From Verrucomicrobia bacterium UBA6176 (GTDB lineage Bacteria > Verrucomicrobiota > Verrucomicrobiia > Limisphaerales > UBA9464): a DNA stretch of 64,000 bases. The notes under the pieces are model-generated. The model did not search any database, was not told the DNA's origin, and saw nothing but the letters and a program-made list of their open reading frames with translations. Every line of letters starts with the position of its first letter. Positions within the stretch are counted from its first letter, which is position 1. The position numbers and the translations under genes were made by a program. The DNA is taken from NCBI GenBank assembly GCA_002422905.1, contig DITU01000107.1, forward strand, positions 134,633 through 198,632, read 5' to 3'. This document shows, piece after piece, positions 634 through 25,359 of this stretch.

Positions 634-936
634 TCAGGTGACGATGTCGAAGATGCGGTGGAGTCGGGTGAGTTCGAGCACCTGAAGGACGTTGGGAGTG
701 GGATTGTGAAGGCGGACCTGACCACCCCGCGAGCGGAGGGTCTTGTGCAGGGCGACGAGGACACCGAGACCGCTGCTGTCGAGGAAGGTCACGGTGGACA
801 GGTCGAGGTCGAGGACCTGGTGGGCGGGTTGGAGAGCGGCGCGGATCGCGTCCCGGATCTGTGCTGCATTGGCGGCGGTGATCTCGGTGAGGGCGGAGAC
901 TTTCAGGTTGTTGGTGTCAGTGTGTGTGATTTTCAT
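634..936 (-). CDS. STAS-domain anti-sigma-factor antagonist (SpoIIAA/RsbV-like)
   Basis: The track ORF 634..990 was trimmed to the ATG at 936 (MKITHTDTNNLKV..). It carries the canonical motif DLSTVTFLDSSGLGVLVALHK with the phosphorylatable Ser, and it is about 100 aa long. Confidence 0.85.
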   Translation of the reverse strand: MKITHTDTNNLKVSALTEITAANAAQIRDAIRAALQPAHQVLDLDLSTVTFLDSSGLGVLVALHKTLRSRGGQVRLHNPTPNVLQVLELTRLHRIFDIVT

Positions 937-2183: not shown

Positions 2184-2932
2184 GTGCCTTTGCCGAACAG
2201 GATGGCGGGGATGGTCTTGAGGAGGAGCCAGAGGTCCTTCCGGAAGGACTGGCTTTCGATGTAGCGGACGTCGAGGTCCACCTGTTCCTCGAAGTCGATG
2301 GCATTGCGGTCGCCGATTTCGAAGAGGCCGCCGTGACGTTCGCCGACCTGCCAGAGGCAGGTGATGCCGGGTTTCACATTGAAACGGCGGCGATGCCGTT
2401 GCTCGTACAACTCGACCTCACGACGGACGGGGGGACGTGGGCCGACGATGGACATCTCGCCGCGGAGCACGTTCCAGAACTGGGGCAGTTCATCGAGCGA
2501 AGTCTTGCGCAGGATGCGGCCGACCCGGGTGATGCGGGGATCGTCCTTCATCTTGAAGGTGATCCCTTCCTTCTTTTCGTTCAGCGCCAGCAGATCCTTG
2601 AGGCGGGCCTCGGCATCGACGCACATGGACCGGTACTTGAGCATCCTGAACTCGCGGCCATGGAGTCCGTAACGGGTCTGGCGGAAGAACACCGGCCCGC
2701 CATCGACCTTGACCAGCAGGGCGATCATGAGGAACAGCGGGGAGAGGACGATCAAGGCGGCGAGACTGATGACGACATCGAAGAGACGCTTGAGGAAATA
2801 GGCGAAGCCGGTGACACCATTCCAGGCGTACCGTTTCCACGTCACGTAGAGGTTCAGGCGGGCACGGCCGATCGGGGATCGGGCGGAAAGCAACCGGTTC
2901 GCCATCCGCTCCCGGATGTCGTCATCGTTCAT
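2180..2932 (-). CDS. Undecaprenyl-phosphate sugar phosphotransferase (bacterial sugar transferase, WbaP/EpsB-like small PGT)
   Basis: The track ORF was trimmed to the ATG at 2932 ([10 protein letters not shown]..). It has a TM helix ([22 protein letters not shown]) and the motifs [55 protein letters not shown] and [10 protein letters not shown]. The start overlaps the upstream stop (ATGA). Confidence 0.9.
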
Positions 2933-3570: not shown

Positions 3571-4769
3571 TGGTCGGAGCCGGTCCGTCCCAAGGCGGAC
3601 ACCCTTGAGAACATGGCTTCGAGGTCACTGATATAGGTCTCGAAATCGTAGCGCTCGCTCACCAGGCGCAACCCGGCCTCGCCCAGGGACCGGGCACGGT
3701 CCTTGTCCGCGAGCAATTCATCAATGCGGGCTGCGTAGGCATCGCGATCCATCCAGGGGACCAGATAGCCGTTGTGCCCGTCGATCAGCCAGTCGCGGAT
3801 GCCACCGGCATCGAAGGCGACGACGGGGAGGGCGTAGCGCATGACTTCCAGACCGATGGTGGCGATGGGTTCGGGCCAGACGGAGCTGAGGGCGACCACA
3901 GTGCATTCGCGGTAGTACTGGGTGAGTTCCTCCTGGGGAACGAATCCCTTGAAGGTGACGCGGCCTTCGAGTCCCAGTTGGCGGGACAGTTGTTCGCAAT
4001 GGGACTTGTGGTTGCCATCGCCGAGGATGATGCACTCGAAGGGTTGACGGACGCGGGCCAGAGCTTCGAGGAGGACATCGACGCCTTTGCCGCGGATGAT
4101 CTGGCCGGCGTAGAGGATGAGGTTCCGGTTGCTGAAGGAGCTGCGGAGGTTGGGATCGCCCATGCGTGGGACCGGGGCGTGGATCTCAATGCGGGCTGGA
4201 TCGAATCCATTCTGGAGGAGTTCATCCCGCATATAGGTGGTGACGACGATCATCCGGTGGAAGCGTCGGTTGAGTTCGATCTCGCGGCGTTTGTCGGAAT
4301 AGCTGACCCAGCGGAGGGGGAAGCCGGGCCCGGACTTCCTGACGGCGAAGGCGAGGCAGGGAACGAGGCAGGCGAGGGAGGCGGGGCGGGTGCAGATCTT
4401 GCGGGTGAAGTAATCGTACTTGTAGCTGCGCATGCAGTAGATGTCGTGGTCATGGACCATGCGTGCGAGGGGTTGACCGGATTCGACGAGTGCGCCGATG
4501 ACCGACAGGTCGGCCATCTTGTGCACATAGACGGCGTCGGGCTTGAAGGCGGCGAGGGCCTTTTGGACGGTGAGGTTGTTGTCGTGGTCACCGAGGGCTG
4601 CACGGAATGGGAAGGTGGAATCCCAGGCGGATTCGCTTCGACCGGTGGAAGGGCCATGAAGGATTCCGAGGGTGTGTCCGCGCCGTGCCAACTCGGTGGC
4701 GGTGATGAAGGCATTGGCCTCGGCGCCGGCGAGGGCACCATACCGTTCATGCACGTAAAGGATTCTCAT
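3567..4769 (-). CDS. Glycosyltransferase family 4 (GT-B, EX7E type)
   Basis: The sequence begins [21 protein letters not shown].. and ends with C-terminal SSVWPEPIATIGLEVMRYALPVVAFDAGGIRDWL, an E-x7-E-like motif. It has ATGA overlaps at both ends. Confidence 0.9.
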   Translation of the reverse strand: MRILYVHERYGALAGAEANAFITATELARRGHTLGILHGPSTGRSESAWDSTFPFRAALGDHDNNLTVQKALAAFKPDAVYVHKMADLSVIGALVESGQPLARMVHDHDIYCMRSYKYDYFTRKICTRPASLACLVPCLAFAVRKSGPGFPLRWVSYSDKRREIELNRRFHRMIVVTTYMRDELLQNGFDPARIEIHAPVPRMGDPNLRSSFSNRNLILYAGQIIRGKGVDVLLEALARVRQPFECIILGDGNHKSHCEQLSRQLGLEGRVTFKGFVPQEELTQYYRECTVVALSSVWPEPIATIGLEVMRYALPVVAFDAGGIRDWLIDGHNGYLVPWMDRDAYAARIDELLADKDRARSLGEAGLRLVSERYDFETYISDLEAMFSRVSALGRTGSDQ

Positions 4770-7429
4770 GGCAGGCAGGGGGTTGAGTCAGGGGAACCAT
4801 CGAGGTGGGTTGAAAGCCAGTCCGCGAGGAGGCACACCCCGGTTTCTGCCGCCTCCCGCAGCGGGGTCAATTGCTGATGGCACTCCTCCATCTGGTCCTT
4901 GGAAGCGAGGGTTTCCATTTCCTGGAATTGTTGGCCGAGCTCGGTGAGGCCGAAGGTGGCGGCGATGCCCTTCAGGGCGTGCGCAAAACGTTCGGCTTCC
5001 ACGGCGTCGCCCCGATGGATCGCCTCGGAAACTTGATGGAGGCGGTCGGGGAGTTCGGAGGCGAACTCGCGGACGATCCCGGAGACGGTTTCCAGGTCCA
5101 ACTCCTCGACCAACCGGTCGAGGGCGGGCAGGAGCGGAGTGGGGTGGGTGGGCGGGGTTTTGGTGGCCGAGGCAGGGCCGCCGTGCAGCTTCAGGGGCTT
5201 GAGCACCCGCAGCATGGTGGTGCGGAGGTTGGACAGGGTGAAGGGTTTGGCGATGTAGTCATCCATGCCGATGGAGAGGCAACGTTCGCGTTCGCCGATG
5301 AGGGCATTGGCGGTCAGGGCGATGATGGCAATGCGGCGTGGGGGCGGATTGGCGGCCTCGATCCGACGGATGGACTGGGTGGCCTGGTAGCCGTCCATTT
5401 CCGGCATGTTGCAATCCATCAGGATGAGGTCGTAGGGCGTCTTCTGGAGGCTGCTGAGGACTTCGAGACCGTTCTGGGCGACGTCGGCCTTGATCCCGAG
5501 TTCCTCGAGCATGAGGAGGCAGAGCTTGCGGTTGATGGGATGATCCTCCGCCAGCAGGACCCGAACGCCCTCGATGGGTTGGAGATCATCGGAGCGGCGT
5601 TCGACCGGGCGGGGGAAAGCGGGGATGGAGTGTTCGGGCGTGGTTCCGTCCTTGCCACCTTCGACGGCGGTCACCAGGGCATCGAACAGGTAGGATTGTT
5701 TGACGGGTTTCAGGAGGATGTTCTCAAAGACATCGAGGGTGGCCTCGTTGTGGGTGGCGGTGGTGGAGGGATGGGCGAGAAGGATGCAGTGACACCTGGT
5801 TTTACGCTCGATGAGGTAGTTGATGAGTTCCCGGCCACCGAGCGAGACGGTGGCATCGTCACAGATCACGAGAGGTTTGCGTCCGTCGGCGAGGGCTTCC
5901 CCGAGATGTAGCATGAGTTCCTGCGGGGAAGCCGACTCCCTGAAGGTGATGTTCCAGCTGTGGAATTGTTCGCGGAGGGATTCCGCCTGGATCATGGATT
6001 TGACGCAGAGGAGGACATTGGCACGCACGAGGGCGGGATGGCTTTCGTGTGCGGGTGGCGGTCGGAGTGATTTCAGGGGGATCTCGAACCAGAAAGTCGA
6101 GCCATGGCCAAGCTCACTTGTCACTCCGATCCGTCCGGACATGAGTTCGACGAGGCGCCTTGAGATGGCGAGGCCAAGTCCGGTTCCGCCGAACCGGCGT
6201 GACGAGGATTGATCCGCCTGGACAAACGGCTGGAACAGGCGTTTCAACTGGGGATTGGTCAGGCCGATCCCGGTATCCTGCACCTCGAATCGGATCCAGA
6301 TCCGGAATTCCTCCGCCCTGATGACCTGGACGCGGAGAGTGATCTGACCGTTCGGGGTGAACTTGACGGCGTTGCCCACCAGGTTGACGAGGATTTGCCG
6401 GAGCCGTTCCGGATCGCCGAGCACCCGGTCGGGAACGTCGTGCTGGACGATGGAGGCCATTTCGAGGGTTCGTTCCGAATCCCGGGTGGCGGCGACTTCC
6501 AGAACGGCATCGAGCACCGGACGGAGGAGGAATTCCCGGGGCAGGATTTCCAGTCGGCCTGCCTCGATCTTCGAGAAGTCGAGGATGTCATCGATGATGC
6601 GGAGGAGGGCGTGGGTACTCTGGGAGATGGAATCGGTGAACTCGCGTTGGCGTGCTGCGAGGGGTGTCTTGCCGAGCAGTTCGGTCATGCCGAGAACCCC
6701 GTTCATCGGGGTGCGGATCTCGTGGCTCATGGTCGCCAGGAAATCGCTCTTGGCGCGGCTTGCCGCCGCGGCTTCCTCGGCGAGGGCATTGGCGCGGTCC
6801 CGTTCCTTCTCCAGGCTGATCCGGGACTGGTCGAGGTCCTCGATCATGCTGAGCATCACCCGGCGGCTCTGTTCGAGTTCGGAGGCGCGCCGGACCAGAT
6901 CGTCCGAAGTCTGTTGGAGGCGTGACTCGGCCACCTTCTGTTCCGAGATGTCGGAGAGGATTCCGATGACTTCATTGCCCTGGCCCGGGCTGGGGACGGG
7001 TTGAAGGAGGACGCCGCAGATCATTCCCGTATCGAAAACCGGGAAATTGAACTGCTGGATCTCGCCATGGAGGGCCTTTTCGAATCGCGCCAGATGGGCC
7101 GGATCCGGAAACAGTGCCGACAACGGGCGATCCTCGAGATCTGCGGGGCGATGCCCCAGTCGGGCAAGGAGCGCGCCGCGGGCGAGGAGGATCCGGAAGC
7201 CGTCGTTGGTCCGGGAGCAACGGATGACGACGTTGGGCTGAAGCTCGAGGGTTTGCCGGAAGAATCCGTTGGCCGTGGCCGGCGTGGAGCCGTGGCCTGG
7301 CGGGGATTGTTCCCCGGTCCTGGGCTGGAAGGACTGTTCGATGGCATCGAGCAGATGATGCAGTTCCGGGATGTCCGGGATCCCGCTGGGGAAGTATTGG
7401 GCGATCAGTTTCCTGAGCGGATCATTCAC
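4766..7429 (-). CDS. Soluble hybrid sensor histidine kinase: PAS-like, HisKA, HATPase_c, degenerate receiver-like, REC and Hpt domains
   Basis: It has an H-box ([15 protein letters not shown]), an N/G1/G2 pattern ([23 protein letters not shown]), a REC domain ([28 protein letters not shown]) and an Hpt motif ([13 protein letters not shown]). I saw no TM helix. The start is GTG at 7429 and overlaps the upstream stop by 8 nt. Confidence 0.9.
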
Positions 7430-8513
7430 CGTGCGGTGGGGTCGGGGGTGGGGTCACGGGGACACGGTCTGAGGCAGCCGACGGATAGAGGGGCGTGCGT
7501 CCCATCTCGCGGCAGAGTTCGTTGACCTCGTGCTTGAGTTCGAGGACGCGGTGTTCGCGGTTCATCATCACCCGGTTGACGCGTTCCAGTTCGGACATGG
7601 CGTTCCGGATCCGATCCTCGTCTTCCTTGCGGGCGGTGATGTCCGATTGAATGGCCATGAAATGGGTGATTTCACCGGCGTCGTTGCGGATGGGTTTGGC
7701 CTCGATGGTGATCCAGTATTTCCGGCCGAGCCTGGATTGGTTGAGGATTTCCACGGAGAAACCGACTCCTTCGCGGACGCTGCGGCGCATCAGTTCGACG
7801 GTGGCGGCATTGGTCTCGGGTGCCTGCAGCAGGGAACCCGGGGTCTGGGCGCGGACCTCGGCAAGGGAGTAACCGGTGAGACGGGTGAACCCGTCATTGA
7901 CCCATTCGATGCGGCCCCGGGCGTCGGTGAGGACGACCGCATTGGTGGTGAGTGCGGCGATGAGTGCGAGTTTGCGCTGTTCGGCATCCTGATCGCGGAG
8001 GCGTTCATTGGCGGCGCGAAGTTCCGCGCGTTGGCCGGTCAGACGATTCGCCAACTCCTTGGAGTCAGCCAAGGCCTGGTGCTGGGCCTGGACGATATGC
8101 AAGAGGTCGAGTCCGGGATCGTGGATTGGAAAATCATTGATGTTGAGTCCGAACCGGGCGATGGCGTTGGCCTCTCCCAACCAGGGTGACACCAGGAAGA
8201 CGAGCACCCGACCGGAATCAACCGGAAGCAGTTGTCCGCGGAATCGCAGGCTGGAAGCGGGATGCAACAGGAGGAAAAGCTGTTGCTGATTCTCCATCAG
8301 GACCGCGTGGTCCAACGCCACATCCGGCCGGATGAGTTGGAAGACATCCTTGAACAGTGCACCCGGAGTTGCCTCGGGACAGTAACGGGCGAGCGATGCT
8401 CCCACCTGAACGATGCGCAGGTCGCTATCGACGGCGAAATGAAACGGAAAAACGGCATGGAACTGATCGGGCGCCAGTCCGATCTCCAGGGTCGGTATGG
8501 CCGACAGTTTCAT
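7422..8513 (-). CDS. HNOBA (heme-NO-binding-associated) plus PAS domain signalling protein with no recognisable output domain
   Basis: The N-terminal half (FHAVFPFHFAVDSDLRIVQVGASL..FQLIRP..LRFRGQLL..VFLVSPWL..GLNINDFPIHDPGLDLL) matches the HNOBA pattern of soluble guanylate cyclases. A coiled coil follows, then a PAS domain (GRIEWVNDGFTRLTGYSLAEV..HFMAIQSDITARK) and a C-terminal helix (NREHRVLELKHEVNELC). I chose the ATG at 8513 because it forms an ATGA overlap with the H-NOX stop; the track start is 8531. Confidence 0.8.
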   Translation of the reverse strand: MKLSAIPTLEIGLAPDQFHAVFPFHFAVDSDLRIVQVGASLARYCPEATPGALFKDVFQLIRPDVALDHAVLMENQQQLFLLLHPASSLRFRGQLLPVDSGRVLVFLVSPWLGEANAIARFGLNINDFPIHDPGLDLLHIVQAQHQALADSKELANRLTGQRAELRAANERLRDQDAEQRKLALIAALTTNAVVLTDARGRIEWVNDGFTRLTGYSLAEVRAQTPGSLLQAPETNAATVELMRRSVREGVGFSVEILNQSRLGRKYWITIEAKPIRNDAGEITHFMAIQSDITARKEDEDRIRNAMSELERVNRVMMNREHRVLELKHEVNELCREMGRTPLYPSAASDRVPVTPPPTPPHGE

Positions 8514-9079
8514 GCAACCGGAGATTTCCATTCCACCAGGAAGAGGTCGTGATCCGCGCCCTCCGCCTTGCTCTCGAGCACCGTTGCCGTGGCCTCGGTC
8601 CCGAACCGTTTACCGAGGCCTTGTATCAGACCGACGACGAAATGGGTCAGGCCGGCGCGGTGCGTACGGTAGTGGAGGTGCAGGGAGTTGGGGCCGACAT
8701 CGGTGCAGGCGAATCGGGGTGGTTGGAGGTTGGGAAACACCATGACGACCCGGGTGTGGAAGTTGGGGAGGTTCAAGAGGAATTCGGGGAGGCTGGAACC
8801 GCCGGCGCTCATCAATCCTCCATAGCCTTCCTCCGCGGTCCGCAGCACCCAATGTTCGCCAAAGGCCCGCAGCAAGGCGTCCTGCGGCGCGCCCAGTACC
8901 GAACTCGCCGCCGCCACGAGTTGAAAGGTCATTTCGTCGGCATACGCCTCATTGCTGATGAACATTTCGACATCAACGCCGGCCTCCCGCTTGATGCGTT
9001 CCCACACTTCGACGCCGTGGTGGAGAACAACCATCTGTTCGATGCCGCGATTCACCATGCCGTACATGTCGGCGGACAC
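8510..9079 (-). CDS. hnoX: H-NOX (heme nitric oxide/oxygen binding, HNOB) sensor protein
   Basis: The N-terminal MYGMVNRGIEQMVV is the classic H-NOX start. A proximal-His context is present (LLNLPNFHTRV), as is a conserved Pro region (FPNLQPPRF). The heme-propionate motif is HYRTHR, a YxTxR variant of YxSxR. The protein is about 185 aa. The true start may be the second Met, at 9067. Confidence 0.85.
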   Translation of the reverse strand: MSADMYGMVNRGIEQMVVLHHGVEVWERIKREAGVDVEMFISNEAYADEMTFQLVAAASSVLGAPQDALLRAFGEHWVLRTAEEGYGGLMSAGGSSLPEFLLNLPNFHTRVVMVFPNLQPPRFACTDVGPNSLHLHYRTHRAGLTHFVVGLIQGLGKRFGTEATATVLESKAEGADHDLFLVEWKSPVA

Positions 9080-9611: not shown

Positions 9612-10709
9612 TCAGGGTCCCACATTGACTCCGACACCGATGCGGTCGACGCCGCCGCCGGCGCGGATGCCTTCGTTGGCGGCGACGGTCCGGACGAAGG
9701 TGTTGACGATGAACTGGCCGGCGTTGCGGAGGGTGCCGAGAGGCTTTTCCGGGACGTAGACGATGTCCCGGGGTTGGAGGGGGACATCGGGGATGCGGCC
9801 CCGGACGATGTCGTGGAAATTGACGACGGCGCAGTGGGGATTGGATAGGGAACCGCGGACGATGACCACCTCACGGAGCCGGGCCTCGGGGAGGGTGCCC
9901 CTGGCTGCGGCGATGGCGGAACTCACGGTGACCTGATCCTTGAAGGAGACGGCACGGGGATCGAACACGGCTCCCAGCACATAGACGCCGGTCGAGAGTG
10001 CCGACGGGAGAAAGACGAAGTCGTCCGGGCGCAGATAGATGTTCTGGGAGAGGTCGCCGCCGTGGATGAGTGCCTTGAAATTGACCGGCAGGAATTCTCC
10101 CTCGCGCACGATGAAACTGTGTTGGAGGTCCGCCAGTTCCTCGGTCGTGCCGGTGAACCGGGCGGTGTAGAGGCCGCCGGCCTGGGTGATGGCGTCGATA
10201 AGGGTGGTGGGCCGTTGGATTGGATAGATGCCGGGGCGTTGGAGGCGGCCCAGAACCCAGACGCGCTGACTGACCACCTGACGCACGGACAAGGTGACCC
10301 GGGGATGACGGACATAGCGTGTCAGTTCCTTTTCGAGAGCCCGGCACGCCTCGGATTGGGTCATGCCCCACACATTGAGACCCGGAACCAGATGGAAATA
10401 GATGCGACCGTCCGGCCCGACGACGGTGTCGGTCGGCGGATCCCCGAACCCGATGAGTTCGATCTCGATCCGGTCGCCGGGACCGAGCCGGTATTCATCC
10501 GCGGGAGGCTGGAGCCATTCGGGGCGGATGGCATTCGTCATCGAAAGCGACTGGACGATGGTGGGATCTTTGGGATCGCTGGGATTGAACGCGGGACCGC
10601 GGTGGGGTGTGGAGCAACCGGATGAAAGTACGGCAGCCACCAGACCGATCGTGAGGAGAGGAGCGACGGGTCCTGAGGCGGTTCGGGCGAAGGAGTGCGT
10701 GTTGATCAT
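9612..10709 (-). CDS. Outer-membrane polysaccharide export lipoprotein (Wza-like OPX: Poly_export plus SLBB repeats)
   Basis: It has a lipobox (AAVLSSGCS), a Poly_export core (YRLGPGDRIEIEL..VGPDGRIYFHLVPGLNVWGMTQSEACRALEKEL) and SLBB-like repeats (VWVLGRLQRPGIYPI, VYVLGAVFDPRAVSF). The start forms an ATGA overlap with the upstream gene. Confidence 0.85.
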   Translation of the reverse strand: MINTHSFARTASGPVAPLLTIGLVAAVLSSGCSTPHRGPAFNPSDPKDPTIVQSLSMTNAIRPEWLQPPADEYRLGPGDRIEIELIGFGDPPTDTVVGPDGRIYFHLVPGLNVWGMTQSEACRALEKELTRYVRHPRVTLSVRQVVSQRVWVLGRLQRPGIYPIQRPTTLIDAITQAGGLYTARFTGTTEELADLQHSFIVREGEFLPVNFKALIHGGDLSQNIYLRPDDFVFLPSALSTGVYVLGAVFDPRAVSFKDQVTVSSAIAAARGTLPEARLREVVIVRGSLSNPHCAVVNFHDIVRGRIPDVPLQPRDIVYVPEKPLGTLRNAGQFIVNTFVRTVAANEGIRAGGGVDRIGVGVNVGP

Positions 10710-13700
10710 GGGATCCGGGGCAGGATGGCGCGCGGAGTGGCGGGGCGGACATTGAGTCCCACCCAGGTGGCGGTCACCGCCTGGACATAGGAACTGACGG
10801 CCAGTTCGAGGAGGTCCTCGGCGCGTTGCCAGGGTTTCTCTGCGACATAGATGAGGTCCTTGGGCTCGAGATCGAAGTCCCTGGCCCGGCCCGAGAGGAT
10901 GGCATCGACATCCACCACGAAGGTCTGGGGAGCCTGCAGGGAACCGCGGACGACGAGGACGCGTTTCTTGTAGGCGGTCGGGGCGAAACCGCCGCGGACG
11001 GTGAGGACGCCGATGAGGGTCCGTTCACCGGCGAGGCCGAGTGGACCGGGGCTGCGGACCCAACCCAGCACATAGACTTCATTGACAGTGCTGGATGGGA
11101 AATAGAGGTAGTCGCCGGGTTCTATGAGGATGTTCTGGGAGAGGTCGCCCTTGCTGAAGAGTTGTTCGAAATTGACGGGCAACCGTTTTTGATCCCGGAC
11201 GATGAAGGCGCGGGTCATGTCCGCCATTTCGATGGTGTTCTGCTGGTATAGTCCGGTGTCGACGCCGCGGGCGCGCGCGACGGCTTCGATGAGGGTGAGG
11301 GGACGGTCGAGGGTATAGGCGCCGCGATCCACCACGGCGCCCATGAGATAGTATTGTTTGGATCTCCATTCGACCGGCGTGACGATGGAGCGGGCGTGAC
11401 GATGGTATTTGGAGAGGACCTCATCCAGTTTGTCCCGCATCTCATCGACGGTAAGGCCGGCGACGGGGAGGGACTGGGCTTCGAGATAACTGATGCGTCC
11501 GTCCGGGCCGACCGGGACGGCGCTGCGGAGGGAGTCCTTGTTGCCGTAGATCTGGAGGTTGAAGACATCGCCGGCGCCGACGGTGAGGCGTTCCTGCCAT
11601 GGGGCGATGGTGGGTTGGGGTGCAGAGGCGGCGAGGCGTCCGGGCGGGACGGGCGATGGTGAGTCTTCGGCCAACACCGATGATCCGAGGAGGCAGATCA
11701 GTCCGAGCGGGGTTCCGGTCAGGCGTTGGAGGGCGGGCAGTTGCCAGGCTGAGGATGGTTCCCGGTTGAGGATGGCGCCGACGGGACGTATGTCGGCGGC
11801 GTCGAGGGTCTGGGTCATCTGGGACAGTTCATTGGCCTGTGACTGTCCGCTGTTGGTGATCCAGACCAGGGTGGGCATGAGTTCGGCGGCGAACACGGGG
11901 TTCAGGGAGGAGAGCGGAGGCAGTTCCACGAGGAGGACGAAGGGGGGCAATGATTCCCAGTGGCTGACCGCCCTGAGCCAGAGCGAGCGGTTCTCCAGGG
12001 TCCAGTTCCACGAAGCGTCGAAGGAGAGTTCGATCCGATGCGGCCCCGCGTCCCGCATGAAGTCCGAGAGCAGGCCAGGATCCTGAAGGATGGCGGCGAG
12101 CGGCATCGAGCGGATCGTGGCATCCGCGCAGGGTGCATTGACCACCGTGACCGTCGACATTCCGCGCTCGAATGCGGCATCGCGAAGGATCCGGATGACG
12201 GTGGTGCGACCTTCCCCGGCGTCGGCGGAGGCGAATGCGATGGTGAGCCGGGACGGATCCACGGGTTGGATCGAGCGCATGAGCTTCGCCCAGGTGCGGA
12301 ATCGCCACTGGGCCACCCCCTCGGCATCCGCGGTGAGGTTCGTTGGGAGTCGTGCGAGGACGGGGATGCGCAGGATCCGGGCGAGGTCACCGGCCGTCAT
12401 CACGCGGGTGTCGGCGATCTCCCGGATGCAGATGCCGAGCAGGGCGAGGAGAGCCCCGAGGAATCCGGCGGCGACGGTGACGAGAATGATCTTGCGCCAG
12501 CGGCTGCCGGTTTCGATGGAGGCGGGGGTGGCGGGTGCGAAGAGGCGATAGAAGCCGGGCGGAGTGTCGACGAAATTCTGGGCTTCGCGTTGGCGTCCCC
12601 CGAGCATGTCGCGGGTGGCGGAAAGGGATTGCTGACGGGCGACCATCTGGGCGAAGCGCTGGGCTTTCTCGGGGAGTTCGCGGAGGCGTGCCTTGACCCG
12701 GTCACGGAAGAGGGTCATCTGGCTGATCTGTTGGCGGGTGCCTTCCTGATCGCCGCGCATCTGGAGGACCTGGAGGTAGAGTTCGTTGGCGATGGTGTTT
12801 TCGCTGTAGCGGAAGGCGGGGTTGTTGGTGGCGGCGCCTGGCTCCGGGACATTGGTCTCGGCTTCGAGGGAGGCCAGTTGGGCGGCGGCATCCTGGACCT
12901 GGGGATTCTGGTCGGTGAATCGGGCGCGGAGGAGGCTGAGTTCTTCGCGGGCCTGGGAGACGCGGAGGCTGGCGGGGTTCTGGCGGGTCAATTCGCGTTC
13001 GGCGGCAGCGATGCGGAAGCCGAGGGTATTCTGGTTTGCGAGGGCTTCTTCCAGGCGGATTTCGATGTCACCCAATTCCCGCAGGTAGGCGTTGATCTCG
13101 CGATCTTCGCCGAGGAAATCGGAGCTGTTGGCGAACTCGAGCAATTCGGCTTCCACCACGGCCAGTTCGGTATCGATCCGAGTGATCTGGTCCTTGAGGA
13201 ATCCGTTGAGTTCGGTCGCTTCCTCGGCCTGCATGCGTGCGGAGAATTCGGCGGCCTTCCGCGCGAAGAGATTGAGGAGATCGGCAATGGCGCGCGGGCT
13301 GGAATGTCCCTTGAGGGAGATATGGATCAGGTCGGTGTCCCGTTCGGGCCGGACCAGGAGGGCACCGCGAAGGAAGGAGGAACTGACGGGTGGCTGGGCA
13401 TTGGTGCCGACCTCGTGAAGGAATCTGCCGGACTGCATCACACTGACGATGGTGGCGACATTGATCTGGCGGGGCTTGAAGGCTTCACCGGCCTGGGAAG
13501 CCTTCATGGAGTCGGTGACGTCCCGCCGGATGAGTTGGACTGACCCGGAGTAGGATGTGCTGAAACGGTTGAGACCGGCGAAGAAGGCGGGGGTCGCGAG
13601 CACCAAGGCGCCGAGCGGGATCCAGTACCAGCGGGCCAACAGCGCCGTGATCAGGCGGAACGGGTCGAACGGCAATGCGAACCCACCCGCCTTGCCCGGC

Positions 13701-13861
13701 ACACCCGGGCGGTCCGGATCGGCATCGGTTGGAGCTTCACCGGGGTGGGAATCGCGGGCGGAATAAGTGCCGGGGGCGGGCGTGGCCGGGGTGACCGGGT
13801 TGGTCTGTTCCCGTTTCTGGCGGAGATCGCGGACGCGAAAGGGTTCGGGGGTGTCACTCAT
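10706..13861 (-). CDS. Fusion of a Wzz/GumC-type polysaccharide co-polymerase, a degenerate BY-kinase-like P-loop domain and a C-terminal Wza-like OPX module
   Basis: The track ORF 10706..14047 was trimmed to the ATG at 13861 (MSDTPEPFRV), an 8-nt overlap with the upstream stop. TM1 is WYWIPLGALVLATPAFFAGL, followed by a long coiled-coil periplasmic region and TM2 (IILVTVAAGFLGALLALLGICI). A P-loop-like region follows, with GEGRTT in place of GxGKT. A third hydrophobic segment (GTPLGLICLLGSSVLA) precedes Poly_export/SLBB sequence (LTVGAGDVFNLQIY..VGPDGRISYLEAQSLPVAGLTVDEMRDKL..YYLMGAVVDRGAYTL). There is no in-frame stop between the modules. Confidence 0.85.
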   Translation of the reverse strand: MSDTPEPFRVRDLRQKREQTNPVTPATPAPGTYSARDSHPGEAPTDADPDRPGVPGKAGGFALPFDPFRLITALLARWYWIPLGALVLATPAFFAGLNRFSTSYSGSVQLIRRDVTDSMKASQAGEAFKPRQINVATIVSVMQSGRFLHEVGTNAQPPVSSSFLRGALLVRPERDTDLIHISLKGHSSPRAIADLLNLFARKAAEFSARMQAEEATELNGFLKDQITRIDTELAVVEAELLEFANSSDFLGEDREINAYLRELGDIEIRLEEALANQNTLGFRIAAAERELTRQNPASLRVSQAREELSLLRARFTDQNPQVQDAAAQLASLEAETNVPEPGAATNNPAFRYSENTIANELYLQVLQMRGDQEGTRQQISQMTLFRDRVKARLRELPEKAQRFAQMVARQQSLSATRDMLGGRQREAQNFVDTPPGFYRLFAPATPASIETGSRWRKIILVTVAAGFLGALLALLGICIREIADTRVMTAGDLARILRIPVLARLPTNLTADAEGVAQWRFRTWAKLMRSIQPVDPSRLTIAFASADAGEGRTTVIRILRDAAFERGMSTVTVVNAPCADATIRSMPLAAILQDPGLLSDFMRDAGPHRIELSFDASWNWTLENRSLWLRAVSHWESLPPFVLLVELPPLSSLNPVFAAELMPTLVWITNSGQSQANELSQMTQTLDAADIRPVGAILNREPSSAWQLPALQRLTGTPLGLICLLGSSVLAEDSPSPVPPGRLAASAPQPTIAPWQERLTVGAGDVFNLQIYGNKDSLRSAVPVGPDGRISYLEAQSLPVAGLTVDEMRDKLDEVLSKYHRHARSIVTPVEWRSKQYYLMGAVVDRGAYTLDRPLTLIEAVARARGVDTGLYQQNTIEMADMTRAFIVRDQKRLPVNFEQLFSKGDLSQNILIEPGDYLYFPSSTVNEVYVLGWVRSPGPLGLAGERTLIGVLTVRGGFAPTAYKKRVLVVRGSLQAPQTFVVDVDAILSGRARDFDLEPKDLIYVAEKPWQRAEDLLELAVSSYVQAVTATWVGLNVRPATPRAILPRIP

Positions 13862-14741
13862 GGCGTGGCGACTGGTGACGGCGCAGGTCGGCGGCGACCG
13901 TTTGGACATGGGTGGAGGCAACTTCGCGGGCGCCCTGGAGCCAGGCTTGTTCGAGGGCGAGTTTGGCGAGGCGATTGATGCGGCGTGGAATGCCCTGGGC
14001 CTCGGCGAACACGACTGAGGCGGCTTCCGATGCAAACACGCGGCCATCGGTGTGGCCGGCGGCGATCAGTCGGTGACGGAGGTAGGAACCCACCTCGTCT
14101 GCCGGGAGGGATTGAAGATGATACCGGAGACTGATGCGTTGCTCGATGGCCGGGCTGGCATCGACAAGCCGGCGGAGTTCGGGTTGCCCGACGAGTACGA
14201 GGGTGAGGAGATGGGTTCCCCCGCCATTCCAGTTGGTGAGCGAACGCAGTTCGTGGAGTGTTGCCGCAGTCATGTCCTGAGCTTCATCCAGGATGAGTAC
14301 CAGATGTCGGCCGCCGCGGGCGATCCGGCGGATCATGGCTTCCAGCATTTCGCATCGGGCGAGGGTCCCGGCCGGGGGCACCGGTGCGCCGGGATCCAGG
14401 CGGTGGATCAACGACGCGATCAATTCGGGGAAAGGGAATCCCGAGTTTTCCAGGGTCAACACCTGGAAGCGCGCGGGATGGATGGTGGCGGTGAACATGG
14501 CGCGGGTGAGGGTCTTGCCGCAGCCGATCTCGCCGGTGAGCAACCCGATGTTCATGCTGGTCTCGGTGACCAGGTAGAGCAGGCGATCCAGGGCTTCCCG
14601 ATGGTCGGGGCTGGCGTGGAAGAAGCGGGTATCCCAGGTGGCCTCGAACGGGCGTTCCCGGAGACCCCAGTGGGCCAGGAGTCCGGGGGCGGAAACCGGA
14701 TCCGGGAGGCCTGGGGAGGGCAATTCAACGGGCGCGGGCAT
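13854..14741 (-). CDS. ExeA-like AAA ATPase (the type associated with PEP-CTERM/EPS loci)
   Basis: It has a Walker A motif (LTGEIGCGKT) and a Walker B motif (HLVLILDEAQ), then LVLVGQPEL and C-terminal GIPRRINRLA, typical of the ExeA/GspA-like AAA_22 family. I chose the ATG at 14741 (MPAPVEL..); the track start is 14849. Confidence 0.8.
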   Translation of the reverse strand: MPAPVELPSPGLPDPVSAPGLLAHWGLRERPFEATWDTRFFHASPDHREALDRLLYLVTETSMNIGLLTGEIGCGKTLTRAMFTATIHPARFQVLTLENSGFPFPELIASLIHRLDPGAPVPPAGTLARCEMLEAMIRRIARGGRHLVLILDEAQDMTAATLHELRSLTNWNGGGTHLLTLVLVGQPELRRLVDASPAIEQRISLRYHLQSLPADEVGSYLRHRLIAAGHTDGRVFASEAASVVFAEAQGIPRRINRLAKLALEQAWLQGAREVASTHVQTVAADLRRHQSPRHE

Positions 14742-15873
14742 CAACAATCCTCCGGTAGATGGCCAACGTCTGCTCTGCATTGCTTCCCCAGTCGAATCGG
14801 CGGGCGTGCGCCAGTCCCCGTTCGGAGAGCAGGGAACGACGTTGCGCATCGGTCGTCAACCCGGTCATCACCGTGGCCATTCCGGCGACATCTTCAGGTT
14901 CGATCACGGCGGCGGCATCACCGATGACTTCCCGCAAGGATCCGCGGGTGGAACTGATGACGGGAACGCCGCAGGCCATGGCTTCGACCGGAGGGAAACC
15001 GAAGCCCTCGAACAGGGACGGGTAGATGAAGAGGCTGGAGGCGCGGTAGAGGTTGGGCAGGGCGGCGTCCTCGACGAATCCGAGAAAGCGGATATCCGCC
15101 GCGAAGGGCGAGGCGGCGGCGGTTTCATGGACGGTGGCGGCGCCATGCCAGTCACTGCCGCCGAGGGCCAGGACCCAGTCCGAGCCGGTGGCGGACTTGA
15201 ACTGGTTGAAGGCGTGGATCAGCCGCACATGGTTCTTGGCGGGGTGCTCGATGCGGGAAACGTAGAGGAAGAAGGGCTGGTTGAGACCCCATCTGGCAGC
15301 GGCTTCACGCCGGGCATGGTCGACGTTTCCCGGCTTGAACCGTTCATGATCCAGACCGTTCCAGACCACATCCACGCGTTGGCGTGGAATGCCGAAGAAA
15401 TGTTCGATGTCGCGCGCGGTGTTGTCGCTGACGGCGATGAGTGCGTCCTGACGCCGGGCGAGGTGTTTGACGAAGACCCGGCCGTACAACATCCGCTTCC
15501 AGTCATATTTGCCGCGGACATGGAAGGGCGCGAGGTCGTGGATGGTGCCGACGACGGCGCAGGGTTTCCGCCAGAGCAGGCGCCGATAGCTGGGGGAATG
15601 GAGGACGTCGAGTTGCAGTCGGCGGGCGAGGCCGGGCAGATGGCTGTGGTGCCAGGCGACATTGCGGGCGGCGGGACGGAATTGTTCGGATACCGGAACG
15701 ATGCGCATGCTGTCGGCGGCGAAGCCGAGCAGGGGAATATCCTCTTCGAGTGTGAACAGGTGGAACTCGTGTTGTGCCGTGGAGGGGAGGAAGGCGCGCA
15801 ACAGGGCAAACACGTACTGGGCGACTCCGGTCTTGCCGCGTTGAATCACCGAGGTGGAGATCCCGATCTTCAT
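14725..15873 (-). CDS. Glycosyltransferase family 4
   Basis: The real gene is the 3' part of track ORF 14725..16734 and starts at the ATG at 15873 (MKIGISTSVIQRGKTGVAQYV..). The C-terminus SLFEGFGFPPVEAMACGVPVISS is an EX7E motif. The start forms an ATGA overlap with the upstream stop. Confidence 0.9.
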   Translation of the reverse strand: MKIGISTSVIQRGKTGVAQYVFALLRAFLPSTAQHEFHLFTLEEDIPLLGFAADSMRIVPVSEQFRPAARNVAWHHSHLPGLARRLQLDVLHSPSYRRLLWRKPCAVVGTIHDLAPFHVRGKYDWKRMLYGRVFVKHLARRQDALIAVSDNTARDIEHFFGIPRQRVDVVWNGLDHERFKPGNVDHARREAAARWGLNQPFFLYVSRIEHPAKNHVRLIHAFNQFKSATGSDWVLALGGSDWHGAATVHETAAASPFAADIRFLGFVEDAALPNLYRASSLFIYPSLFEGFGFPPVEAMACGVPVISSTRGSLREVIGDAAAVIEPEDVAGMATVMTGLTTDAQRRSLLSERGLAHARRFDWGSNAEQTLAIYRRIVDARAR

Positions 15874-17384
15874 GGGGCGGGTGCGGGGGAATCGAGGAGG
15901 TAGCCTTCGAGGCGGGTGATGCGGAGGACGTTCCGGACTGGAGGACTGGGATTGGTATAGGTCAGCCGCTGATGGCGGCGCCCGGTCTCCCGCTTGAATC
16001 TCAGGAGCAATCCGACGCCGGTGCTGTCGATGAAATCGACCTGGGAAAGGTCGAAGTTCACCGGGGTTTCGCAGGAGATGGAAGAGATGCGGGACTGGAT
16101 GCTCTGGGCGAATTCGCCGGCGTTGGCGGCGGTGATTTCGCCCCGCCAGGAGACGGTCGGGGTTGAAGGGGGGCCGGCCAACTGGACAGGAGGTTGCTCG
16201 GGTCGCAGCGAGAGCATCTGGAGGGCTGTGGATTGATCCGGGGCGGAGGGAAAGAATTCGAGGAGCTTCATCCCCTGCAGGATGGAGGTGACGACGGCCG
16301 GAATCGAAATCAGGACCAGCCCGTGCTTCGATTCGCGCGCGGTCTTGCGGAGTCGGACCAGCAATCCGATCCCGGTGCTGTCGATGAACGTCACTTCCGA
16401 AAGGTCCATGACGACATCGGATCCACTCACCTTCTCCAGCCATTCCTTCTGCACGACGGTGGCCGACGCGGCGTCGATACGGGTCGGGGGAACGATCAGG
16501 ATATGGGGAGCGGATGCATGGTTCGGGGGTGGCCCGGACGGGATGGGGTCCGGCTGGATTGCGGCCGGGCGCGGGGAGCACTGGGCCGGATGCGGGGGGC
16601 GGCTGCGCATCTGCCACCATTGACGCAGGATGGCGGTGCTGAAAACCCGGAGGTCCTTGGAGTAGCGCCGGACCAGCCGGGACGGTTCCTGGCACATGCG
16701 GTAGATCCATTCGGTCCCCGTCTTCTGCATCCACATCGGGGCCCGATTGAAGGTGCCGGCGAGGAAATCAATGGTGGCGCCCACCCCGACACTGAACGGG
16801 ACTCCCGCCGCCTGGAGGTTCATCCAGATCCATTTCTCCTGCTTGGGGCATCCGAAGGCGACCAGAAGGATGTCCGGGGCGGCCTGCCGGATGCGCTCCA
16901 GGATGTCGGAATGGTTCATGTCCAGGAGGGGACTGAACGGCGGTGAGTAGGCACCGACCAACTGGAGGGCGGGATGGAGTTCCCGGGTGCGCGACGCGGC
17001 AGCGGCCACGCTCTGCTCGGTGCCTCCGAGGAAGAAGACCTTCCAACCCTCACGTTCGGCACGTTCGAGCAGGAGGGGGACCAGGCCGGACCCGGTGACG
17101 CGTTCAGGAAGGGGGTTCCCGAGGAAACGGGAGGCCCAGACGATCGGTTGGCCATCGGCCATCACCAGGTGGGCGTCGAAAAGGATGCGACGCAGTTCCA
17201 CGTCTTCGAGGGATTGGACGAGGAAATCCACGTTGGCTGTCGCGGCGTAGTGTGGTCGACGCGAACGGACCATCTCGGCGATGAGGTCGAGTGTCTCCTG
17301 GGTCGTTACGTTGTCGAACACCACTCCAAGAACAGCAACGGGGGGCTTGCAGGGCCGGATCGGCGATTGTCCTGCGGGGGGCAT
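15870..17384 (-). CDS. WecB/TagA/CpsF-family (GT26) glycosyltransferase fused to two C-terminal STAS domains
   Basis: The GT26 core is VLGVVFDNVTTQETLDLI..TANVDFLVQS..VMADGQPIVWASRF..VFFLGG..LLVAFGCPKQEKWI. A Pro-rich linker follows, then two STAS units, each with the FIDSTG(I/V)GLL motif (MDLSEVTFIDSTGIGLLVRLRK and FDLSQVDFIDSTGVGLLLRFKR). I chose the ATG at 17384; the track start at 17423 is a TTG. Confidence 0.85.
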   Translation of the reverse strand: MPPAGQSPIRPCKPPVAVLGVVFDNVTTQETLDLIAEMVRSRRPHYAATANVDFLVQSLEDVELRRILFDAHLVMADGQPIVWASRFLGNPLPERVTGSGLVPLLLERAEREGWKVFFLGGTEQSVAAAASRTRELHPALQLVGAYSPPFSPLLDMNHSDILERIRQAAPDILLVAFGCPKQEKWIWMNLQAAGVPFSVGVGATIDFLAGTFNRAPMWMQKTGTEWIYRMCQEPSRLVRRYSKDLRVFSTAILRQWWQMRSRPPHPAQCSPRPAAIQPDPIPSGPPPNHASAPHILIVPPTRIDAASATVVQKEWLEKVSGSDVVMDLSEVTFIDSTGIGLLVRLRKTARESKHGLVLISIPAVVTSILQGMKLLEFFPSAPDQSTALQMLSLRPEQPPVQLAGPPSTPTVSWRGEITAANAGEFAQSIQSRISSISCETPVNFDLSQVDFIDSTGVGLLLRFKRETGRRHQRLTYTNPSPPVRNVLRITRLEGYLLDSPAPAP

Positions 17385-17430
17385 GTCGGAGGAGTCACTA
17401 CCCAATTGAGGTTGGGATTCCAAGTGCCGG

Positions 17431-18843
17431 TTGCGTCGTCAGGTCGATTGGGCGTGTAATCTGACAGGCGCGTTGACGACGATTGACTTCATCAAGCTGG
17501 CGATTCTGGTGCCCTTTTTCATGGTGCTGGCGCCCTTGTGTGGGGTGGTCCTGAAGGGACGTCCCTCGTGGCAGCGGTTCGCATTCGCGATGCTGTGTTT
17601 CATGACCCTGAACGGCTTTCTCGGACCCGGGAACTGGGGGCTCACGCTGGGTTCGATCGAGGCGTACCGGGGCCACACCAAGGGCTTCCACTTCTACTTC
17701 AACCATGCCATCGCCATCGCCCTCATCAGTGCCCGATGGCTGGAAGATCGGCGCTCCTTCCGTTGGTTCCCGCCCGGCCTGGGATTGTATCTCCTCTACT
17801 GCGCCATCTCGCTGGTGTCGCTGGTCAACGCGCCATCGCCCGGCCTGGTCTGGATGGCCGCCCACAAGATGATCTTTGCGTCGGTCCTTTTGATCGCGGC
17901 GTTCAACCAGTTGAGGTCGGATGCGGACCTGCGGTTTTTCCTGCGGGTGATGGTCTGGGTGATGACCTGGGAGCTGCTGGTCTGCCTGAAGTTGAAGTAC
18001 CTGGACGGCATGTATCAGGTGCGCGGAACCTTCGAGCACCAGAATCCGCTCGCGATGTACTCGGTCCTCGTCGGGATGATCCTGCTCGCGGTCGGGTTGG
18101 GTCCGCCGCAACCGGAGAGCAGGTCCTACGTGTTCGGTTACCTGGTGTGCGCCGCGATCGTCCAGAGCACGCTGTCGCGGGGGGCGCTGGCGATGTTCGC
18201 CGTCGGGTCGGTCATGGTGGTCGTGGTCAGCCTGGCTGAGAAGCTTACCGTACGTCGGGTGGTCATGGTCGGGGTGTTGGGCCTGGTGGGCCTGATTGGA
18301 TTGGTTCTCGCGCTCGACAGCATCGTTTCCCGTTTCAATGATCGGGGAAATGCGGCCAGCGGTCAGTTGCGCGAAGTCATGAACCGGGCGTCCATGGAAA
18401 TGGTTCGGGATCATCCCCTGGGCATCGGATGGAACAACTTCGCGCTGGTGGTGAATCCGCCGCATCGCTACGCGGACATCTACTACGACTGGAATCGGGA
18501 AAGGGGAATGGCGGTGGATGAAACCAAGGCCAACGCGGTAGTGGAAAGCCACTACTACCTGTTGCTCGCCGAGACCGGATGGCTGGGGTTGGCCAGCTAT
18601 TGCCTGCTGATCGTCGCCGGTTTGTGGTGGAACCTGAAGTCGTTCCTGCTCCTGCCCCATTCCTTCAGGCGTACCCTCGCCCTGGGCATCGCCACCGGTT
18701 GCGCCCTCAACTACGCGCAGAGCAGTCTGGAACGGGTGCTTGTCCAGCCCCGCAACCTGATGCTGTGGCTCGTGGTCGCGGGTGTGACGGGGAGGCTGGA
18801 AGTCATGCGGCGCGACGCCGCCAAACGAAAGGCCGGCCAGTGA
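17431..18843 (+). CDS. O-antigen ligase / Wzy-like polymerase family membrane protein
   Basis: It has at least 10 hydrophobic helices and a loop with the motif ESHYYLLLAETGWLGLASYCLL, typical of Wzy_C. The start is uncertain: 17431 is a TTG, and alternatives are the TTG at 17473 and the ATG at 17521. Confidence 0.8.
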   Translation: MRRQVDWACNLTGALTTIDFIKLAILVPFFMVLAPLCGVVLKGRPSWQRFAFAMLCFMTLNGFLGPGNWGLTLGSIEAYRGHTKGFHFYFNHAIAIALISARWLEDRRSFRWFPPGLGLYLLYCAISLVSLVNAPSPGLVWMAAHKMIFASVLLIAAFNQLRSDADLRFFLRVMVWVMTWELLVCLKLKYLDGMYQVRGTFEHQNPLAMYSVLVGMILLAVGLGPPQPESRSYVFGYLVCAAIVQSTLSRGALAMFAVGSVMVVVVSLAEKLTVRRVVMVGVLGLVGLIGLVLALDSIVSRFNDRGNAASGQLREVMNRASMEMVRDHPLGIGWNNFALVVNPPHRYADIYYDWNRERGMAVDETKANAVVESHYYLLLAETGWLGLASYCLLIVAGLWWNLKSFLLLPHSFRRTLALGIATGCALNYAQSSLERVLVQPRNLMLWLVVAGVTGRLEVMRRDAAKRKAGQ

Positions 18844-25225: not shown

Positions 25226-25359
25226 CCGACCCAGGAATTTCGGGATGCACGGCGGGGAAGTTGAAGTGGAATCCCGGGGATTGACTCCGGGATTGGGGAG
25301 GAGCGTCCTGATGAAAATTCCCGGTCTGGTCAATGGGGTCCAGTCCCGAGGTTACCCCC

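Follow-up and report, generated by a model that had tools for sequence, protein, structure and literature searches.

Can an enzyme of cell-surface glycan synthesis be switched directly by an anti-sigma-type serine kinase? The question is raised by a gene on the minus strand of a 64,000-nucleotide stretch of DNA from Verrucomicrobia bacterium UBA6176 (contig DITU01000107.1, positions 134,633 to 198,632; "the window" below means this whole stretch), whose product, here called GT26-STAS-STAS, joins a glycosyltransferase of family GT26 to two C-terminal STAS domains. A STAS protein, an RsbW-like serine kinase and a PP2C phosphatase are encoded together in the same exopolysaccharide (EPS) gene cluster. 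From comparison of this and related loci we hold, with a little more confidence than doubt, that GT26-STAS-STAS is the direct output of a partner-switching-like module and would be switched by phosphorylation.

A GT26 glycosyltransferase fused to two STAS domains

The gene and its parts are the following:

15870..17384, minus strand: GT26-STAS-STAS gene, 504 amino acids (stop codon 15870-15872)
16599..17342, minus strand: GT26 (TagA-like) catalytic domain with its C-terminal appendage, residues ~15-262
16506..16598, minus strand: Pro-rich linker between the GT26 domain and the first STAS domain, residues ~263-293, of low predicted local distance difference test score (pLDDT) in the structural model
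16206..16505, minus strand: STAS domain 1 (STAS1), residues ~294-393, with a FIDSTG motif (Ser336 codon 16377-16379)
15888..16160, minus strand: STAS domain 2 (STAS2), residues ~409-499, with a FIDSTG motif (Ser454 codon 16023-16025)

The 504-residue protein matched Pfam Glyco_tran_WecG (PF03808) with an E-value of 1e-60 (204.7 bits against a cut-off of 27.4), and STAS (PF01740) and STAS_2 (PF13466) in two stretches each (E 3e-26 to 4e-27). Among NCBIfam models, wecG_tagA_cpsF (TIGR00696; 133.9 bits) and ant_ant_sig (TIGR00377; 85.8 bits) scored above their curated cut-offs of 69 and 53.45, respectively. These Pfam and NCBIfam matches, with the STAS part resolved as two units, bear out a preliminary description of the window, which had read from the same DNA a GT26 domain that a Pro-rich linker joins to two STAS domains, each with a serine of the SpoIIAA/RsbV type; its positions for the two motifs (~16361-16392 and ~16006-16037) were off by only 1-4 nucleotides from those that encode FIDSTGIGLL in STAS1 (16359-16388) and FIDSTGVGLL in STAS2 (16005-16034). 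The EPS_EpsA equivalog score of the protein was 181.6 bits, below the cut-off of 500, and STAS1 gave a weak match to MlaB. Each fused STAS domain is closer in sequence to a free STAS protein encoded at 634..936 than STAS1 is to STAS2. The usual database label of the family is WecB/TagA/CpsF glycosyltransferase, to which one JGI entry adds 'anti-anti-sigma factor'.

The open reading frame (ORF) present in the window spans 15870..17423 (minus strand). ATG at 17384 was chosen as the start because gene callers and the homologue alignment agree on it; the TTG at 17423, which would give a protein of 517 residues, was rejected, since both the gene calls and the N-termini of homologues point to the ATG.

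An identical 504-residue protein is recorded on three contigs; of the two places shown, one is from ENA and the other from Logan. The best 120 matches in a collection of 5.8 billion proteins were all full-length (463-576 residues) and all carried PF03808, PF01740 and PF13466. Hundreds of full-length homologues have this architecture. Because the identical protein recurs on three contigs and more than 120 full-length homologues are found across phyla, we regard the fusion as genuine.

The tandem STAS tail is, by sequence search, essentially specific to GT26 proteins. When only the tail was used as query, an exhaustive phmmer search of 1.84 billion representatives returned no more than 211 matches at E <= 1e-10, and the 10 outliers among them, of odd length or position, that were checked all contain GT26 or are fragments, for which reason we consider the tail to be a GT26-specific appendage. 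Occurrence of the tail on other enzymes was therefore rejected, the fragments among the outliers running into GT4. The outlier variants comprise a double GT26, PPTase-GT26, GT4-GT26 and one read-through into the downstream GT4. Three of the proteins are apparent variant architectures, for which fusion and gene-calling merge are both possible: P0159 (two GT26 domains and the STAS pair), P0164 (4'-phosphopantetheinyl transferase, GT26 and the STAS pair) and P0263 (GT4, GT26 and the STAS pair).

The catalytic half is of the TagA type

Residues were mapped by alignment to TagA of Thermoanaerobacter italicus (7mpk, 5wb4; E 1e-38). TagA T37, N39, D65, R83, Q167, E168, R214 and R221 correspond to T49, N51, D77, R95, Q182, E183, R229 and R236 of GT26-STAS-STAS, and all eight are kept in 119-120 of 120 close homologues. 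In TagA they include the Thr that orients N-acetylmannosamine, the Asp that acts as catalytic base and residues of the pocket, together with the arginines by which the appendage completes the active site (PMC6493773).

An AlphaFold2 model of the 504-residue protein, built on a 33-sequence alignment, had a mean pLDDT of 85.4 and a predicted template-modelling score (pTM) of 0.81, a value that suggests, for a three-domain chain, a defined packing of the domains against one another. In Foldseek comparison the GT26 part of the model matched TagA (7mpk, 5wb4, 5wfg) with target-normalised template-modelling (TM) scores of 0.91-0.94 and a root-mean-square deviation of 1.6-2.0. With the TagA residues and the modelled fold intact, the GT26 domain looks catalytically active. 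The C-terminal appendage of TagA supplies Arg221 and drives the transition from an inactive soluble oligomer to an active membrane-bound monomer (PMC6493773); in GT26-STAS-STAS the STAS pair starts ~30 residues past the equivalent appendage.

Both STAS domains retain the motif serine

The STAS parts of the model matched TM1442, RsbV, SpoIIAA and RsbS in Foldseek with target-normalised TM scores of ~0.7-0.8. In the 33-sequence alignment D335, S336 and G338 of STAS1 and D453 and S454 of STAS2 are invariant, and Ser336 and Ser454 are identical in 120 of 120 close homologues. Across 40 diverse representatives at 50 % identity, Ser336 is kept in 36 (two have Ala and two Gly), and 38 have Ser or Thr at position 454; one Desulfobacteraceae STAS2 carries DGSG. 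We take Ser336 and Ser454 to occupy the position of SpoIIAA Ser58 and RsbV Ser56.

Distribution of the family

The database search for the combination of GT26 and STAS that the preliminary description had called for found it in Verrucomicrobiota, Chloroflexaceae and Desulfobacteraceae. The taxonomic spread was taken from the species-representative genome set; in it, GT26 proteins with two STAS domains occur in several groups of Verrucomicrobiota (subdivision 3/Pedosphaera/Limisphaerales, Verrucomicrobiales, Opitutaceae and Chthoniobacterales), where Prosthecobacter fluviatilis KACC 12649 (locus L031) is a cultured carrier among Verrucomicrobiales, and outside this phylum in Chloroflexus/Chloroflexaceae (37-38 % identity) and Desulfobacteraceae (32-34 %). 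GT26 proteins of Acidobacteriaceae/Terracidiphilus carry a single degenerate STAS-like tail without the serine ('IGADA'). In these loci (L073-L082) the tail is of ~207 residues, its first half a degenerate STAS and its second half not recognisably STAS, and neither a kinase nor a phosphatase appeared within 10 kb.

A free STAS/kinase-GAF-PP2C/REC module in the same cluster

Two genes at the start of the window belong to the putative regulatory module:

634..936, minus strand: free single-domain STAS protein, 100 amino acids, with a FLDSSG motif (Ser54)
1..617, minus strand: N-terminal part (HATPase_c_2 and the start of GAF) of a kinase-GAF-SpoIIE(PP2C) protein, cut by the window edge

They are, as first described, the sole free STAS protein and the sole RsbW-like kinase within the 64 kb, where the GT26 fusion is the one other ORF that bears STAS. 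The RsbW-like domain of what had been called the kinase at 1-617 is indeed present, but it is merely the N-terminus of a larger fusion: on a longer contig of the same organism (L003) the full gene encodes 594 residues comprising HATPase_c_2, GAF and SpoIIE, and is followed by a lone receiver (REC) protein of 128 residues, a Phosphodiest-family gene, a GT4 glycosyltransferase, a Wzx-type flippase and two more glycosyltransferases. The PP2C metal-binding motifs GGDFYD, ADVMGKG, TDG and DDxT are invariant in four orthologues. Past the window start, the same contig ends (19731-20303) in a 1290-residue gene of nonribosomal peptide synthetase type (Condensation, AMP-binding, PP-binding, Thioesterase), convergent with the EPS cluster.

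The module and GT26-STAS-STAS share one EPS cluster of ~35 kb and lie on the same strand. No sigma-factor Pfam family was found among the called genes in the cluster locus tables, no scan of the window dedicated to sigma-factor domains having been made; we use the label 'partner-switching-like' because no called cluster gene carries such a family; it fits the All4160 and SypA systems discussed below as well.

The module is linked to GT26-STAS-STAS in two phyla

Linkage was analysed in both directions. In a forward test, the window proteins were compared with six-frame ORFs of 80 GT26 loci from the species-representative genomes, with flanks of +/-10 kb; the 15-kb spacing of the window itself exceeds these flanks, and the test would have missed such cases. 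In a reverse test, alignment of the kinase-GAF-PP2C protein against metagenome contigs gave 80 loci at 39-58 % identity, 35 of them at least 8 kb long.

The module directly adjoins GT26-STAS-STAS in six loci found by these tests (L006, L102, L103, L110, L123 and L163). The order in L006, all on one strand, is HNOBA-PAS, hybrid histidine kinase, histidine kinase, free STAS, kinase-GAF-PP2C, REC, GT26-STAS-STAS, GT4, AAA_22 and export genes, with 191 bp from the end of REC to the GT26 ORF. In L030 the free STAS/kinase-PP2C/REC triad lies 6.5 kb upstream of GT26-STAS-STAS; PP2C and REC genes are found at the 9-kb edge of the flank in L011, L012, L024 and L031 (P. fluviatilis), and a lone REC at that edge in L023, L032 and L046. 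Loci of Chloroflexus/Chloroflexaceae (L054, L062 and L064; L063 and L067 are incomplete) are arranged as GT26-STAS-STAS, a 574-residue protein, free STAS, GAF-SpoIIE, HATPase_c_2 kinase and REC. Here the kinase is a separate gene of 147-161 residues, and the 574-residue protein is of NTP_transferase-Hexapep-Bac_transf type (L062, 11514-13235).

By comparison, neither kinase, PP2C nor free STAS was found within +/-10 kb in any of nine loci with a STAS-less GT26 orthologue, and no module lies near the Acidobacterial GT26 genes that lack the motif serine. The module is within 10 kb in ~11 of 53 two-STAS loci as against none of the nine STAS-less ones, a contrast that is suggestive but not significant alone. 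A block of Bac_transf, free STAS (one or two copies), kinase-GAF-PP2C and REC recurs in the 35 longer reverse loci, and a GT26-STAS gene directly follows REC in five of them (L102, L103, L110, L123 and L163). When shorter contigs are included, eight GT26 ORFs were found beside the kinase/phosphatase, and STAS with the DS motif is present in each. Because the loci are related by descent, the counts do not stand for independent events; the strongest single argument comes from Chloroflexus, where the arrangement is independent. The earlier suggestion that an RsbW-type kinase has the GT26 protein as its partner or substrate has in this way gained comparative support, the module adjoining GT26-STAS-STAS in two phyla.

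Placing the module at the end of an H-NOX operon, as had been done, holds less well: the block is conserved within the EPS cluster, and in relatives mostly without H-NOX. Hybrid histidine kinases accompany it in many of them, but only one of the 35 longer reverse loci has H-NOX, which therefore looks like a lineage-specific input. The counts of hybrid histidine kinases in the reverse loci were inflated by cross-matches of REC domains and were set aside. Two tandem free STAS genes precede kinase-GAF-PP2C in L086, L089, L090, L094, L113, L127, L129 and L163, compared with one in the window.

The EPS cluster around GT26-STAS-STAS

The remaining cluster genes that bear on the argument are:

17473..18843, plus strand: Wzy_C (polymerase/O-antigen-ligase-like) membrane protein, divergent from GT26-STAS-STAS
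14725..15873, minus strand: GT4 glycosyltransferase, conserved immediate downstream partner of GT26-STAS-STAS
13854..14741, minus strand: AAA_22 ATPase, best match an XrtA/PEP-CTERM system-associated ATPase, below cut-off
10706..13861, minus strand: chain-length determinant/Poly_export fusion, 1051 amino acids
9612..10709, minus strand: Poly_export/SLBB outer-membrane export protein
8510..9067, minus strand: H-NOX haem NO/O2-binding protein
7422..8513, minus strand: HNOBA-PAS protein
4766..7429, minus strand: hybrid histidine kinase (HisKA-HATPase_c-REC-Hpt)
2180..2932, minus strand: Bac_transf priming phosphoglycosyl transferase, 250 amino acids
957..2183, minus strand: Hexapep/partial Bac_transf-like protein, 408 amino acids, directly upstream of the free STAS gene

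GT26-STAS-STAS is the first gene of a translationally coupled operon, and its stop codon overlaps the GT4 start as ATGA. A promoter and terminator scan of the divergent 88-bp intergenic region (17385-17472) detected nothing. The 1051-residue fusion has an inner-membrane polysaccharide co-polymerase region at residues ~170-514 and a Poly_export/SLBB outer-membrane export region at ~760-1035; chain-length determinant and Poly_export are two separate genes in L012, L018, L022, L023 and L060.

The H-NOX/HNOBA-PAS/hybrid histidine kinase operon (4766-9067, minus strand) sits between the two halves of the EPS cluster, and a 151-residue gene without a Pfam match (9115-9579) lies on the plus strand between it and the export operon. 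Genes for a GT4 glycosyltransferase and a PRK-family kinase are on the same strand between the hybrid histidine kinase and Bac_transf. The 408-residue protein also gives a weak nucleotidyltransferase match and is always encoded directly upstream of the free STAS gene. Further along, a giant ORF of 4628 residues (25333-39219, plus strand) matches Laminin_G_3, PA14 and CarboxypepD_reg, with weaker or faint matches to GLEYA, Big_9 and CARDB, and from these is probably a surface adhesin-like protein.

A putative phosphorylation switch and its alternatives

The switch that we favour would operate as follows. The TagA-type GT26 domain is predicted to act on the lipid-linked intermediate made by the priming Bac_transf, in an EPS pathway of Wzx/Wzy type. 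The kinase domain would phosphorylate Ser336 and/or Ser454, or bind the unphosphorylated STAS domains, and PP2C would reverse this, while the free STAS protein would compete for the same kinase and phosphatase. The lone REC may set the balance between kinase and phosphatase, probably fed by the Hpt of the hybrid histidine kinase and, in this organism, also by H-NOX. The state of the STAS domains would control docking or membrane binding of the appendage, and through it the toggle between soluble oligomer and membrane monomer; because the STAS pair begins so closely behind the appendage, STAS control of this element is the simplest physical model. By analogy with the cyanobacterial protein All4160, discussed below, the phosphorylated form may be the off state.

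Several points weigh against such a switch. Its support consists of sequence, linkage and a structural model, from which we infer phosphorylation and binding, as well as the direction of switching, the way the appendage is controlled and the input by phosphorelay. At the start of a STAS helix the DS(T/S)G motif serves a structural purpose too, so its conservation alone is no proof of phosphorylation. A few Opitutaceae have DATG or DGTG in STAS1, and the STAS2 motif of Chloroflexus is ASAG, with the serine kept and the aspartate lost. The G1 box of the kinase reads DHTAGF and not DxGxG, and its kinase activity is predicted only. As to linkage, ~15 kb separates the module from the GT26 gene in the window, many two-STAS loci are without the module within +/-10 kb, and the STAS-less control is small (nine loci), which makes the contrast between the two groups statistically weak when taken alone. 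Altogether, the interpretation is partly supported, with strong comparative evidence.

It is rather unlikely, in our estimate, that the fused STAS domains remain unphosphorylated and act as a dock or decoy within the module, for instance as pseudo-substrates that bind the kinase domain, or pair with the SypA-like free STAS, which as the genuine substrate of phosphorylation would then regulate in trans. This would go with the very same gene linkage, with the closer resemblance of each fused STAS to the free STAS than to its neighbour, and with replacement of the serine in one of the two domains in some lineages; there is also a parallel in Vibrio fischeri, where unphosphorylated SypA acts on some target within an EPS locus (PMC8256260). 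If docking alone mattered, however, both serines would not be expected to be near-invariant, as they are, and the fused STAS of All4160 is itself phosphorylated (PMC13555669).

We think it unlikely that the STAS pair is independent of the kinase altogether and serves to bind a ligand (nucleotide, lipid or anion), to oligomerise or to localise the enzyme to the membrane, with the module regulating something else, for example transcription or Bac_transf. The nearest matches in sequence and fold are of the phosphorylatable SpoIIAA/RsbV/TM1442 class and not transporter STAS domains, the acceptor serine is near-invariant, and the module is adjacent and on the same strand in two phyla. What speaks for a role of this kind is that transporter STAS domains (SulP/SLC26) and MlaB function without phosphorylation, together with the weak match between STAS1 and MlaB, the many loci that have no kinase within 10 kb and the Acidobacterial GT26, which retains a STAS-like tail devoid of the serine.

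Very unlikely is a third possibility, in which the STAS domains, in the manner of MlaB and the ATPase MlaF (PMC7367683), tether GT26 either to the export machinery or to the AAA_22 (PEP-CTERM-type) ATPase of its own operon. AAA_22 is indeed the second gene after GT26 in the operons of many Verrucomicrobiota; we rate it low as a partner because many two-STAS loci (e.g. L007, L008, L009 and L012), like the Chloroflexus loci, have no such gene, and the ATPase shows no similarity to MlaF. Finally, a frameshift or assembly artefact joining a GT26 gene to STAS genes, which the preliminary description had named as fatal to its proposal, is scarcely credible and, with nothing in its favour, was rejected, given the identical protein on three contigs from the two sources shown, more than 120 full-length homologues of the same architecture in several phyla, and a single continuous reading frame that yields a confident folded model.

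Returning to the phosphorylation switch, a wider form of it can be drawn up, which we consider doubtful. It would be a switch of three STAS domains with the enzyme as the switched partner: the kinase-GAF-PP2C protein would split between the free STAS and the two STAS domains of GT26, with input from REC, which the hybrid histidine kinase with its Hpt and, in this organism, H-NOX would feed; phosphorylation of STAS would gate the membrane toggle of the appendage and with it the step after priming, and the Bac_transf-like neighbour would be under the free STAS in trans, as a counterpart of the STAS-Bac_transf fusion in cyanobacteria. Such an arrangement would have an origin separate from that of the cyanobacterial fusion and extend over at least three phyla. 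The 408-residue Bac_transf-like neighbour of the free STAS may be a second target of the module. If this wider form is true, two consecutive early steps of the pathway would be under one post-translational switch.

Comparison with known systems

EPS and biofilm output is usually attributed to control of transcription or to cyclic di-GMP. The enzymes nearest to the catalytic half, TagA/TarA and WecG (PMC6493773, PMC8784642), share with it the GT26 fold, the catalytic Thr, the Asp base, the Gln/Glu pair and the appendage Arg, as well as a membrane-binding C-terminal appendage by which the active site is completed. TagA and WecG stop after the appendage, whereas GT26-STAS-STAS runs on into the Pro-rich linker and two STAS domains, and it is set in a Wzx/Wzy EPS cluster and not in a teichoic acid or enterobacterial common antigen pathway. 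With its STAS pair right behind the regulatory appendage of the TagA type, the family offers a natural system for study of GT26 membrane switching, and its cultured carrier P. fluviatilis KACC 12649 makes the hypothesis testable. A literature search for STAS fused to WecG, TagA or GT26 found no paper.

With canonical partner switching by SpoIIAA/SpoIIAB/SpoIIE or RsbV/RsbW/RsbU the window module shares a STAS protein with DS(S/T)G, a HATPase_c_2 kinase and a PP2C phosphatase. It differs in that STAS domains are carried on an enzyme, kinase and phosphatase are fused, and the called cluster genes include no sigma-factor family.

Closer in setting is the syp EPS locus of V. fischeri, in which SypA is a STAS-only protein whose target is unknown and SypE a kinase/phosphatase fusion (PMC8256260). 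As in the window, a free STAS and a bifunctional RsbW-kinase/PP2C protein lie inside an EPS locus, and no sigma factor is known as the output. Control in syp is exerted through a receiver and a hybrid histidine kinase, for both of which the window has candidates. The central domain of SypE is REC, whereas that of the window kinase is GAF and REC is a separate gene of 128 residues. No STAS-fused glycosyltransferase is described in the syp literature searched; GT26-STAS-STAS hints at the kind of target that STAS proteins of the SypA type may have in EPS loci.

The closest precedent for the proposed switch is cyanobacterial. In Anabaena sp. PCC 7120, All4160 joins an N-terminal STAS to Bac_transf, and its Ser74 is phosphorylated in vitro by the RsbW-like kinases Alr3423 and All2284 (Harada, Matsuoka and Ehira 2026, PMC13555669). 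The PP2C protein HenR (REC-SpoIIE) reactivates All4160 and is needed for its function, and S74A or deletion of alr3423 bypasses loss of henR; STAS fused to Bac_transf is rare outside cyanobacteria, and the authors termed the strategy lineage-specific (PMC13555669). That a polysaccharide enzyme should be regulated by a kinase/PP2C pair via a fused STAS is thus no longer unprecedented.

All4160, with HenR and Alr3423, and XssP of Synechocystis resemble GT26-STAS-STAS in having a STAS domain with a SpoIIAA-type serine fused to an enzyme of polysaccharide synthesis. In the All4160 system the enzyme is under direct control of an RsbW-like kinase and a phosphatase of the SpoIIE/PP2C type, without a sigma factor, as is proposed here, and a receiver domain feeds the phosphatase, an input for which the window module has a candidate in REC. 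By this analogy GT26-STAS-STAS most likely works like All4160. It is not a member of the same family, because it differs in the enzyme, in how many STAS domains there are and where they lie, and in how kinase and phosphatase are organised: All4160 has one N-terminal STAS on a Bac_transf priming enzyme, compared to two C-terminal STAS on a GT26 that is predicted to act after priming, and here kinase and phosphatase are fused with GAF, REC is separate and there is an extra free STAS. Bac_transf is a separate gene in the window (2180-2932), which thus lacks the STAS-Bac_transf fusion that defines All4160 and XssP; both there and in Chloroflexus, a Bac_transf and a Bac_transf-like gene lie immediately upstream of the free STAS, in the window as separate neighbours, in contrast to the cyanobacterial fusion. 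The phyla are also different, namely Verrucomicrobiota, Chloroflexota and Desulfobacterota.

A direct phosphorylation switch on a biosynthetic glycosyltransferase was shown only in 2026, and for a single cyanobacterial priming enzyme. The GT26-STAS-STAS family would extend the same logic to another enzyme class, with tandem STAS domains and in three more phyla, contrary to the view of a lineage-specific strategy, and its distribution and gene order suggest that partner switching at the level of the enzyme is a general and repeatedly evolved gate on surface-glycan synthesis.

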